From Escherichia phage 92CQ, in sequence record PV682554.1: DNA of 64,000 nucleotides; one strand, written 5' to 3'. Positions 42,692-45,493 of the stretch are shown in pieces. The position numbers were made by a program, and so were the translations under genes. Within the stretch, counting starts at the first letter, position 1, and the number at the start of each line of letters is the position of its first letter. The notes beneath the pieces are model-generated. The model was not told the DNA's origin and did no database searches. It worked only from the letters and a program-made list of their open reading frames with translations.

Positions 42692-45493
42692 ATGTATCCT
42701 ATTCCTTTATTTATGTCAACAACATCAGCTTCAGTAGTAACAGCTACATCTATAACCACTTCCTCTATTGGTATTGCAATAGTTGGTAGTAAAAAGCAAC
42801 TGACATACACAGTTTCACCGGAAGATGGTGCGTTATTTGATATAGCTTTTTCATCTTCAGATAATACCAAAATGGTTATAGATAATAGTGGTATGATGGA
42901 GTTTGTTGCTGAAGGTGGTTTTGATGCAATAATGACAGCTAAAAATAATTTAGGTGCTGTCTTAACTGATCAATCTGGTGGTTATGCTTCAGAATTAAGT
43001 GTGTACACTGAAAGTCTATCTGCTATGGATGTAGGCACTACTCAACAGTTGGTTGCTACAATCAGTCCAGAAGGTGCTAAAGACCTTCCAGATATGGTAA
43101 TTACGTATACCACAACAGATCCAGAAGTAGCTACTGTAAGCCCTACAGGATTAATAACTGCTCTTAAAGATGGTAATTGCCGTATAGGTTGTACTGCAAC
43201 GTATCAAGGAACAGTTGTGGCCTCTGATAGTTCTTATTTAGGTGTTAATGCTATTCCTGTTATTTCTAATGTAACAGCCGTGGCAAACAGCTATGGAGAC
43301 GTTCGTGTTGCTTGGGATGTAGTTGATCCGCTAGATGGTGATACTTATACTGTAGAAGTATTAGATTTAAATAATAACAGTGTCCAGTGGACTACAACAA
43401 CCACGAATACTTACGCCTACTTTGATATCTCTGACTCTATTCCTCTTTATGGGTTTGCTCCAACATACCTTAAAATTAGCGTTAAGAGCACCAAAGCAGC
43501 AGCCGTTATCTTTAATAACTCAATAGCTACAGATGATTCGTTCATTAAAGAAGTTATTGTCTTTGCTGGACAAGATAACGTAAATGCGCACTTTACAGAA
43601 TTGTCTGGTGCAAATAAAGCAGCAATGAGTAGCACAACAGCCCGTAATGCATATGCTACGCAACGTGGTTTAGCAAATGCTGAAGTTCTTCCGTTAAATA
43701 CAGCTTCTGGATCATCAGCAGCAGATAAATATGCTGACGATAAAGCAGGAACAGGTACACCAGACAACTACTGGTATGATCTGGATAACACAGCAGATGG
43801 GCCATGCTTAACTAACTTTATCACTAAAGTCACACCTTATGCAAGTAAGGTTAAAGCAATTATTTGGGGACAAGGTGAAAATGATGCTGTATCCGCATCT
43901 TCAACTGTTGCAGGTAGATACAGTAACACTACACGTTACCATGATGCTACGATAGCTATCTTTGATAAGATGCGTACAATAGTTCCTGCTTCTCAAGCAA
44001 AAATTGTTTGGCAGATCCTAGGACGTTCTTATTTATATGGTGTAGAAGTTAATGGTGTGGATTGGCAGAAATACAGAAATGTACAAAGAGCCATCTCTAC
44101 AGCACGTGATGATGTTATCATTGGTTCTTGGGTGGATGGTGCTGAACGCTACAGTGGTTATGTTTATGAAGAAGGTATTGATGGTCGTATCCATTATATT
44201 TCTTCTGTATACCAAACAGCAGCTACAAAACTTGCTAAATCAGCAGCAGACGGTACAGACTTAACATCAACATCACCTGTTTGGGTTGATATGGCTGTTC
44301 CAACTGGAGCAACAGCTACTTCCCAATCTAATCAAGATACAATTTTAGCATGGGATGCTCAAGGTTATAGTAAACACTACTTCCGTAATATTAACGTCTT
44401 AACAGCATCTGTATTAACTGAACAAACGCTTAATACGAACAGTTATACGTTTACCTATGCAGATCAAGTGGAACAATATGGTTTTGCAGCAGGAACTACT
44501 GTATTTGATGTTGCATATTATGACGAAGCAAATGATGTGTTATCTCCTTTAGTACGTTTTAATGTTAACGTTACCGCGATGGACTATGATTTGACACAAG
44601 AAACTCTTCCAGCAGATGTGCGCGTAAACAGGAGCAACCATTATGCTAGGGCTTCTGGAGATATCCTTGTACCGACAGAGGTTTCTGCTCCTGTAGCACC
44701 TTTAGAATATATTGGTACAACGCCACAAGGTAGACGTGTTGTAGCAGCCAACCGTACATATATCTTTGTCAACAATAACTTGACAACAGCTTCCCCGTGG
44801 TTGAAGACGAACTTGACAGTTACAGCATCAACAATCAACTCTCCGGTTGGAACTACAGCTAACACTTACAAGTTAACACCTTCTACAACTTCAGGACAAC
44901 ATATTTTATCAGCAGTGAATACAGCTTCTGATATTACAGCAGGTAGGCAATGGGCTGCATCTGTATTCTTGAAGCCAGACGGGATCACTAAAGTGAAGCT
45001 CAAATTGACTTCAGGAAATGAGGTTAACGAAGGGACTTATGATCTTGAAGCTGGAACATTTACAGGCACAGATGCAAATATGATCGACATGGGGAATGGT
45101 TGGTATCGTGTAATCTTACATAAAGTAACGGTTGCTAAACAAGCCTCTATGACTTATGAGATTATAGCTTTGAATGCCAGTGGATCAGACACTTTTGCAG
45201 GAGATGGCACTGGAGGTCTTATTGCTTGGGTTCCACAACTTGAAATGGGCGATATGACAAACCCAGTTTGGGCGGGGACACCATTTGTTTGTACTTATGC
45301 ACGAGACACAGATAGTGCTGCCACCTTCACTATTCCTAAGAACGGACACACTGGCGTGGATATTTACCACACAGATGGAACTGTGCAAAGAGAGATTTTC
45401 ACTGGCACAGCTACTACTTGGATGTTATCATTCAACGCCGCAAGTGCAGATTGGGGATCGAAATTCATCTCTGGTTTGAAATATTACGACTAA
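42692..45493 (+). CDS. tail spike/fibre protein with Ig-like (Big_2-like) domains and SGNH/SASA-type carbohydrate esterase domain
   Basis: 933 aa; Big_2-like segments; esterase-like motifs VIVFAGQDN, AIIWGQGENDA and DGRIHY. Confidence 0.5.
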   Translation: MYPIPLFMSTTSASVVTATSITTSSIGIAIVGSKKQLTYTVSPEDGALFDIAFSSSDNTKMVIDNSGMMEFVAEGGFDAIMTAKNNLGAVLTDQSGGYASELSVYTESLSAMDVGTTQQLVATISPEGAKDLPDMVITYTTTDPEVATVSPTGLITALKDGNCRIGCTATYQGTVVASDSSYLGVNAIPVISNVTAVANSYGDVRVAWDVVDPLDGDTYTVEVLDLNNNSVQWTTTTTNTYAYFDISDSIPLYGFAPTYLKISVKSTKAAAVIFNNSIATDDSFIKEVIVFAGQDNVNAHFTELSGANKAAMSSTTARNAYATQRGLANAEVLPLNTASGSSAADKYADDKAGTGTPDNYWYDLDNTADGPCLTNFITKVTPYASKVKAIIWGQGENDAVSASSTVAGRYSNTTRYHDATIAIFDKMRTIVPASQAKIVWQILGRSYLYGVEVNGVDWQKYRNVQRAISTARDDVIIGSWVDGAERYSGYVYEEGIDGRIHYISSVYQTAATKLAKSAADGTDLTSTSPVWVDMAVPTGATATSQSNQDTILAWDAQGYSKHYFRNINVLTASVLTEQTLNTNSYTFTYADQVEQYGFAAGTTVFDVAYYDEANDVLSPLVRFNVNVTAMDYDLTQETLPADVRVNRSNHYARASGDILVPTEVSAPVAPLEYIGTTPQGRRVVAANRTYIFVNNNLTTASPWLKTNLTVTASTINSPVGTTANTYKLTPSTTSGQHILSAVNTASDITAGRQWAASVFLKPDGITKVKLKLTSGNEVNEGTYDLEAGTFTGTDANMIDMGNGWYRVILHKVTVAKQASMTYEIIALNASGSDTFAGDGTGGLIAWVPQLEMGDMTNPVWAGTPFVCTYARDTDSAATFTIPKNGHTGVDIYHTDGTVQREIFTGTATTWMLSFNAASADWGSKFISGLKYYD

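Follow-up and report, generated by a model that had tools for sequence, protein, structure and literature searches.

An SGNH-fold domain with aspartate at the catalytic serine position in a modular fibre-like protein of Escherichia phage 92CQ and its relatives

We analysed a stretch of 64,000 nucleotides from Escherichia phage 92CQ (record PV682554.1; hereafter the window) and focused on the complete open reading frame (ORF) at 42692-45493 on the plus strand, which runs from an ATG at 42692 to a stop codon at 45491-45493 and encodes a protein of 933 amino acids (aa), with coordinates and length exactly as described in a first-pass annotation of the sequence. That annotation had taken the protein for a tail spike whose esterase domain deacetylates a surface polysaccharide during adsorption. 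We find that the middle of the protein is a domain of the SASA branch (sialate-O-acetylesterase-like, CE6) of the SGNH fold in which aspartate stands at the position of the nucleophilic serine, and that this replacement is fixed in the phage genus Justusliebigvirus. Enzymatic deacetylation is not supported as it was stated, since the check for a Ser-His-Asp triad fails at the nucleophile (Asp295), and, judging from the sequence, a role of the domain in binding a surface sugar is more likely than one in deacetylating it. The gene and its parts are as follows:

42692..45493, plus strand: ORF of 933 aa; orthologs are phi92 gp152/153, JohannJBalmer bas62_0035 and alia_33
42692..42778, plus strand: N-terminal peptide MYPIPLF..., aa 1-29
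42779..43252, plus strand: two Big_2 Ig-like domains, aa 30-187 (Pfam Big_2, E 1e-13)
43256..43519, plus strand: FN3-like beta domain a, aa 189-276, which the phi92 record lacks through a deletion
43520..44296, plus strand: SASA-type SGNH-fold domain, aa 277-535
43574..43576, plus strand: codon GAT, encoding Asp295 where block I of the family has its nucleophilic Ser (GQDN for GQSN)
43865..43888, plus strand: block III WGQGENDA, aa 392-399, holding the SASA-specific QGE that orients the oxyanion-hole Gln294
44192..44194, plus strand: codon of His501 (block V, within DGRIHY), a residue that the model places in the loop preceding its last helix
44297..44575, plus strand: FN3-like beta domain b, aa 536-628; short alleles (628-647 aa) stop here
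44576..45490, plus strand: exchangeable C-terminal cassette, aa 629-933, with a beta-sandwich core at ~aa 695-855

The assignment of the middle domain to the SASA branch is supported by profiles, by Foldseek and by the hallmark residues of the branch. The motifs quoted in the first-pass annotation are all present and correspond to blocks I, III and V of SGNH/SASA proteins (GQDN at aa 293-296, WGQGENDA at 392-399 and DGRIHY at 497-502). However, GQDN is not typical, as had been claimed: the consensus of both the family and SASA is GQSN, and the D falls on the catalytic Ser. The 933-aa protein alone gave a sub-threshold match to the Pfam SASA profile (PF03629; E 0.024, 14.7 bits, and 17.0 bits for the domain alone, against a gathering threshold of 24.8 bits). 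A word-indexed homolog search returned two fragments (five matches with a profile), and the family analysis was based on an exhaustive search with HMMER through 1.84 billion representatives, which yielded 77 clusters, 14 of them with E < 1e-30. Among the family domains that were aligned, 18/25 matched Pfam SASA, with a best E of 1.6e-13. The resemblance to SGNH/SASA blocks thus goes well beyond coincidence. The AF2 model of the domain, computed from this 25-domain alignment (pLDDT 94.6, pTM 0.92), has the three-layer alpha/beta/alpha architecture with a central parallel sheet that characterizes the SGNH fold, so that the fold part of the structural prediction came out as anticipated. In the Foldseek ranking, N4 gp65 was at the top (TM 0.78-0.80, E 4e-13), followed by 1ZMB.

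The SASA branch is defined by a Gln beside the catalytic Ser that is oriented by the (H)QGE of block III, and has an inverted oxyanion hole (PMC9487903). Both elements of this signature were found, as Gln294 and Q394-G395-E396, and because they are present the SASA assignment stands at that sub-family level. The oxyanion Gly of block II is Gly338 (in NTASGSS; Gly in 71 of 93 aligned instances), Asn/Asp397-398 are retained, and the block V His is kept as His501 (His in 44/51 aligned instances). The nearest block V Asp is D497, which lies at -4 versus the canonical DxxH spacing and is without an Asp counterpart in close homologs; NanS likewise has no block V Asp (PMC9487903). With the SASA/CE6 enzymes (PF03629; 1ZMB CAC0529, 2APJ At4g34215 and 3PT5 E. 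coli NanS) the domain thus shares the block order, the Gln and QGE, and the block V His. It differs from them in carrying Asp for Ser, in scoring below the Pfam gathering threshold, in lacking the DxxH Asp and in sitting inside a multi-domain virion protein, whereas those are free enzymes. Esterase tailspikes of the G7C type are trimeric, possess a Ser-His-Asp triad and have demonstrated deacetylase activity. These spikes (G7C gp63.1, PDB 4QNL; Moo19/B2; epsilon15) are far more distant from the domain than the SASA enzymes are, and in contrast to them the domain has no Ser and the protein gives no sign of a trimeric spike. Because the defining test for the nucleophile failed, we would not file the 933-aa protein as an esterase, despite homology to SASA/CE6 at the level of fold and pocket.

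The name tail spike fared similarly. The gene does belong to a tail-fibre gene cluster, but there is no indication of a beta-helix or a trimeric spike, and the protein consists, as N4 gp65 does, of small domains in a row. Neither a right-handed parallel beta-helix nor an N-terminal tailspike anchor was matched by Pfam or PDB searches in the 933-aa ORF, while neighbouring ORFs have them.

Placement of Asp295 at the nucleophile position was based on sequence and profile alignment together with the DSSP string of the model. The profile aligns its segment to FLMLGQSNMAG of 1ZMB and to IFILSGQSNMAG of 2APJ, with Asp295 on the Ser of GQSNM, and in the model Asp295 comes directly after strand 1 at the beginning of helix 1, the location of the nucleophile in the SGNH fold. 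In the family the block I consensus is GQSN..HF, and Ser occupies this position in 50/69 aligned domain instances as against Asp in the window protein. The 34-aa segment around GQDN is identical in 39 phage records and carries one mismatch in 15 more; the phi92 record matches it at 100% identity, and GQDN was read in 4/4 translated Justusliebigvirus loci (JohannJBalmer, alia and two IMG/VR contigs). A sequencing error was considered as the origin of GQDN and rejected, as the codon GAT is at least two base changes away from every Ser codon and the segment is identical in dozens of independent genomes.

Orthologs and more distant relatives place the replacement in a wider pattern. The ortholog of the Avunavirus Av-05 (647 aa, at the same genomic position, 41% identical) reads GGDN and SLGEQD, i.e. 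it has kept the Asp, but neither the oxyanion Gln nor the Q of QGE is left; such further losses would follow if selection for catalysis had ceased. Relatives at ~50% identity have GQSN (P0007, P0008) or GQAN (P0006). Elsewhere in the family, Ser loss usually goes with loss of the His, which is kept in the window protein and in P0006. Loss of the Ser has recurred in the family and includes the second copy of N4-type sheath proteins. Many large homologs carry two to three tandem SASA-like copies (e.g. P0009, P0014, P0022, P0027, P0029, P0036 and P0040), and in most of those listed at least one copy is without GQSN or has a degenerate block III (e.g. GVNSLVGG, ESGPGETTG); these copies show that members of this phage domain family have lost catalytic residues repeatedly.

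Within the genus, the SASA domain showed 9-15 synonymous versus 1-4 non-synonymous differences per comparison, corresponding to a ratio of non-synonymous to synonymous rates (dN/dS) of 0.02-0.10. A decaying relic was rejected on these values, and the domain is therefore maintained for some function. Asp295 may be conserved as a good helix N-cap, in which case its conservation would come without a chemical role.

The closest relatives of the domain were found in the sheath of phage N4. The profile matched N4 gp65 with E 8e-69 and located two SASA-like copies in it, at residues 440-602 and 757-982. The first copy comprises blocks I-III (GESQ, in which Ser is kept, and WGQGDQDA), and residues 13-77 of N4 gp64 align to the C-terminal third of the domain including the IHF His motif; in this sheath a single SASA-like domain seems to be distributed over two polypeptides, gp65 and gp64 (PDB 9LC0, chains I and M). 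Many of the best matches outside the genus are gp65-type proteins (NCTSP_N, TIM barrel and SASA-like domain) with ~50% identity, and the end of the SASA domain together with FN3-like domain b matches N4 gp65-type proteins through phrog_15324 ('tail sheath and receptor binding protein', aa 452-648). N4 gp65 (9LC0, 9YF4, 9YF5) and the window protein have in common the SASA domain and the beta domain that follows it. N4, however, is a podovirus in which gp65 and gp64 form a six-fold sheath around the tube, whereas the window virus is a myovirus, and the window protein adds the Big_2 domains and a tip resembling a carbohydrate-binding module (CBM). The NCTSP_N and TIM-barrel_NCTSP domains were not found by Pfam in the 933-aa ORF; both are in a separate ORF at 29927-32086. 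The set of modules of N4 gp65 is here split over two genes, namely ORF 29927-32086 and the SASA-FN3 cassette of the ORF at 42692. The domain belongs to the N4 gp65-type SASA-like family, but the whole protein is not a gp65-type sheath.

N4, the Vequintavirinae and phi92-like phages all require wecB and nfrB, and hence the NGR glycan rather than the enterobacterial common antigen (ECA) (PMC8669472; PMC11990801). ORF 29927-32086 appears to correspond to the 'glycan deacetylase' fibre which the BASEL authors linked to N4. By its predicted domains, the SASA-FN3 cassette is a second module common to N4, phi92-like and related NGR-dependent phages; we found no discussion of it as a shared module in the literature searched.

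At the other end of the protein, the region of ~aa 665-877 is homologous to the head spike fibre Rcc01080 of RcGTA (PDB 6TB9, E 1.2e-13), and the NCBIfam family GTA_spike_fiber (NF048003) scored 72.4 bits over aa 688-856 against a cut-off of 36. The model of the C-terminal region has a mean pLDDT of 65 and exceeds 85 in the core at ~aa 695-855; only this beta-sandwich core was used. It matched the tail fibres of Pa193 (9B45, E 6e-9) and E217 (8ENV, E 3e-7) in Foldseek, and the next matches were the carbohydrate-binding modules CBM70 and CBM61. The likeness to RcGTA Rcc01080 and to the PB1-like tail fibres (Pa193, E217) is confined to the C-terminal third of the protein, and the cassette is missing in short alleles and falls to 63% identity between alleles.

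Natural alleles of the protein come in three architectures. The long form (933-942 aa) is the one found in the window. Its C-terminal alleles differ by up to 37% of their amino acids (63% identity) with saturated synonymous divergence (dS), while aa 1-628 are 95-100% identical, and because the C-terminal alleles diverge while the preceding part stays alike, the comparison points to a recombination boundary at ~aa 628. The short form ends after FN3-like domain b (PD06-type, 628 aa; Av-05, 647 aa). In the Phapecoctavirus-type form (489-496 aa), the two Big_2 domains are fused straight to the C-terminal domain, without the FN3-SASA-FN3 cassette. The phi92 record (FR775895.2) departs from all three: a deletion of ~226 nucleotides takes out FN3-like domain a and an insertion of two nucleotides (GT) leads to a TAA stop, leaving gp152 with the Ig domains and gp153 with the last two-thirds of the SASA domain and FN3-like domain b, and the GQDN segment unannotated. 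This copy is either a pseudogene or a sequencing artefact; if the disruption is not an artefact, the protein is dispensable on the laboratory hosts of phi92.

The first residues of the protein are widely kept. The start MYPIP or MFPFP is found across orthologs of the Justusliebigvirus, Avunavirus and Phapecoctavirus type, whose Ig region is only ~29% identical, and the N-terminal peptide is a possible candidate for a segment that attaches or docks the protein to the virion. The Ig-like domains claimed earlier were confirmed by Pfam Big_2 as two stretches within aa 30-187, and this region further matched phrog_28902, phrog_215 and the Ig-like region of PDB 6N1A. The FN3-like labels and the boundaries of FN3-like domain a were derived from sequence patterns, the flanking domains and the architecture of homologs.

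Taking these data together, we lean towards an accessory fibre or adhesin of the beads-on-a-string type, in which the SASA module is a pseudo-esterase, glycan-binding or rigid, and the C-terminal cassette sets a variable glycan specificity. The protein would then be a side fibre or adhesin-type virion protein of the phi92-like myovirus (Justusliebigvirus), located in the tail and docked by its N-terminal peptide. Its SASA-type domain would keep the fold and the pocket residues (Gln294, Gly338, QGE394-396 and His501) without the nucleophilic Ser, so that canonical deacetylation through an acyl-enzyme would be impossible and activity presumably lost. Purifying selection would retain this pseudo-esterase as a lectin-like glycan-binding site or as a rigid spacer. 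The ligand we would favour is the NGR glycan or another conserved envelope glycan; NGR is preferred because the nearest relatives are the N4 gp65 domains, and N4 and the phi92-like phages are both NGR-dependent. The swappable C-terminal cassette may add strain-specific binding to a surface glycan. Several points weigh against this picture. The phi92 copy is disrupted, and the protein may contribute little; a 2026 cryo-electron microscopy study of phi92 lists fibre candidates without gp152/153. Moreover, the Justusliebigvirus copy has retained Gln, QGE and His and lacks nothing but the Ser, which is what one would also expect of an enzyme with an altered mechanism. Finally, the Asp is common to two clades at 41% identity, which could reflect a chemical role and not only helix N-capping.

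The last two points lead to an active carbohydrate O-acetylesterase with a non-canonical mechanism, in which Asp295 would serve as nucleophile, or as general base together with His501, and NGR, O-antigen or capsule would be deacetylated on adsorption. The strong purifying selection on the SASA domain and the persistence of Asp in two divergent clades are in line with such an enzyme, as is the label 'tail carbohydrate esterase' that two GenBank records (KMB37 and ALITA) give to the ortholog; these labels, however, are automatic and made at the level of the fold. We know of no characterised SGNH/SASA protein that uses Asp as its nucleophile. In Avunavirus, the ortholog shares the Asp and has lost the Gln and the Q of QGE as well, and N4 gp65, which comes closest in structure, is a structural protein of the sheath that also binds the receptor; the N4 paper mentions no esterase activity for it. 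Given in addition that the SGNH mechanism needs a Ser nucleophile to form the acyl-enzyme (PMC9487903), we regard an active esterase as unlikely. Still less probable in our judgement is that the SASA-like domain and the FN3-like domains have only a structural role, as a spacer or in assembly, comparable to that in the sheath of N4, with the C-terminal beta-sandwich making all receptor contacts and short alleles having no receptor role. The closest solved relative is indeed a sheath building block, degenerate copies are common in the domain family, Phapecoctavirus-type orthologs do without the cassette and yet have the C-terminal domain, and phi92 is not known to have lost infectivity despite its disrupted copy. 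A pure spacer, though, fits poorly with the retention of the residues of the ligand and transition-state pocket (Gln294, QGE, His501) at 98-100% identity across the genus, and in the short alleles (PD06, Av-05) the SASA domain and FN3-like domain b are the distal part, with otherwise no obvious binding element.

The pseudo-esterase fibre also has to be set against a location outside the tail fibres. The protein could decorate the capsid or tail tube in the manner of Hoc or a head spike and provide loose glycan adherence; it is towards this location that the homology of the C-terminal domain to the RcGTA head spike fibre points, along with matches of the Big_2 region to 'structural protein with Ig domain' (head and packaging) and to Ig domains of major tail proteins, the lambda gpV-like fold noted for gp152 in the phi92 record and the absence of fibre density assigned to gp152/153 in phi92. 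Against these stand the position of the gene, which closes the tail-fibre/tailspike block and shows synteny across three genera, the matches of the C-terminal core to bona fide tail-fibre proteins of Pa193 and E217, and the SASA-FN3 cassette shared with a tail protein of N4, and we consider a decoration protein very improbable. A bolder proposal, for which we see a low likelihood, is that the Ser-to-Asp domain is a functional innovation, either the first Asp/His hydrolase of the SGNH fold or an esterase-derived lectin for the NGR based on N-acetylmannosamine (ManNAc). Sialic acid, on which SASA enzymes act, is built around a ManNAc core.

Should the lectin version of this bolder proposal be true, SASA-FN3 would be a common NGR-recognition module of N4 gp65-type proteins and of the otherwise unrelated phi92/rV5-like myoviruses. 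Phages of the phi92 type are studied and used as 'Swiss-army-knife' phages of very broad host range, and their fibre genes are annotated by fold. Because the catalytic Ser is absent genus-wide, the label 'tail carbohydrate esterase' may describe the function incorrectly, and treating the protein as a deacetylase in host-range models or in engineering would mislead. The link to N4 gp65 provides a second candidate for NGR use by phi92-like phages and N4, the first being the TIM-barrel 'deacetylase' of the BASEL authors. Domain swaps could start directly from the natural alleles, whose three architectures differ in the presence of the SASA cassette and of the C-terminal tip. Already known were the presence of the gene in >50 Justusliebigvirus GenBank genomes and the esterase label in some; what is new is that the change from Ser to Asp is fixed, that oxyanion residues have decayed in the sister clade, that three architectures exist, and that the protein is linked explicitly to N4 gp65.

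The gene is the final plus-strand gene of a long tail-fibre/baseplate block and is followed by convergent replication genes on the minus strand. The following signals flank it:

42656..42673, plus strand: terminator-like GC-rich hairpin between the upstream collagen-like fibre gene and the 933-aa ORF
42681..42686, plus strand: ribosome-binding site AAGGAG, 5 nucleotides 5' of the ATG, read from the sequence
45497..45520, plus strand: terminator-like hairpin between the 933-aa ORF and the convergent minus-strand gene

Both hairpins (42656-42673 and 45497-45520) are GC-rich and run into T-rich tracts. The one at 45497-45520, set between convergent genes, may be a bidirectional terminator, and the 933-aa ORF may form its own transcription unit.

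Domain matches of the adjoining ORFs agree with the first-pass annotation in placing tailspikes and a collagen-like fibre next to the gene, and hence several distinct receptor-binding candidates in this region:

40691-42652: fibre with Tail_spike_N, collagen and fibritin-C matches
38235-40649: colanidase-type tailspike (phrog 'colanic acid degradation', TSP_Ig-like)
36340-37884: short tail fibre and its chaperone
32095-33939, plus strand: tailspike of 614 aa with a P22/Sf6 neck (phrog_5662; neck at aa 39-89)
29927-32086, plus strand: N4 gp65-like protein of 719 aa with Calx-beta, NCTSP_N and TIM-barrel_NCTSP domains
27042-29918: tail protein of 958 aa

ORF 32095-33939 is a variable spike cassette. 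It occupies the slot of the phi92 endosialidase gp143, and JohannJBalmer has no counterpart of it, just an ORF of 246 nucleotides at this place.

The gene is 97-98% identical in nucleotides to Justusliebigvirus genes (J. alia isolates and JohannJBalmer bas62_0035), and 88 phage records match it. Existing labels of the ortholog vary: JohannJBalmer bas62_0035 (BASEL Bas62_0035) is called 'lateral tail fiber protein with intimin and glycosidase domains', and one record other than KMB37 and ALITA has 'non-contractile tail sheath'. A locus search with the single protein returned only two near-identical IMG/VR contigs. Literature searches found no paper that mentions phi92 gp152 and nothing specific on Justusliebigvirus in combination with esterase or SGNH. 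The gene also occurs at 99-100% identity in four 'Campylobacter phage' records (MG065639, MG065645, MG065656 and MG065689; A150, A145, C3 and A110a; ~146 kb), which look like genomes of Justusliebigvirus coliphages; mislabelling or contamination is the probable explanation.

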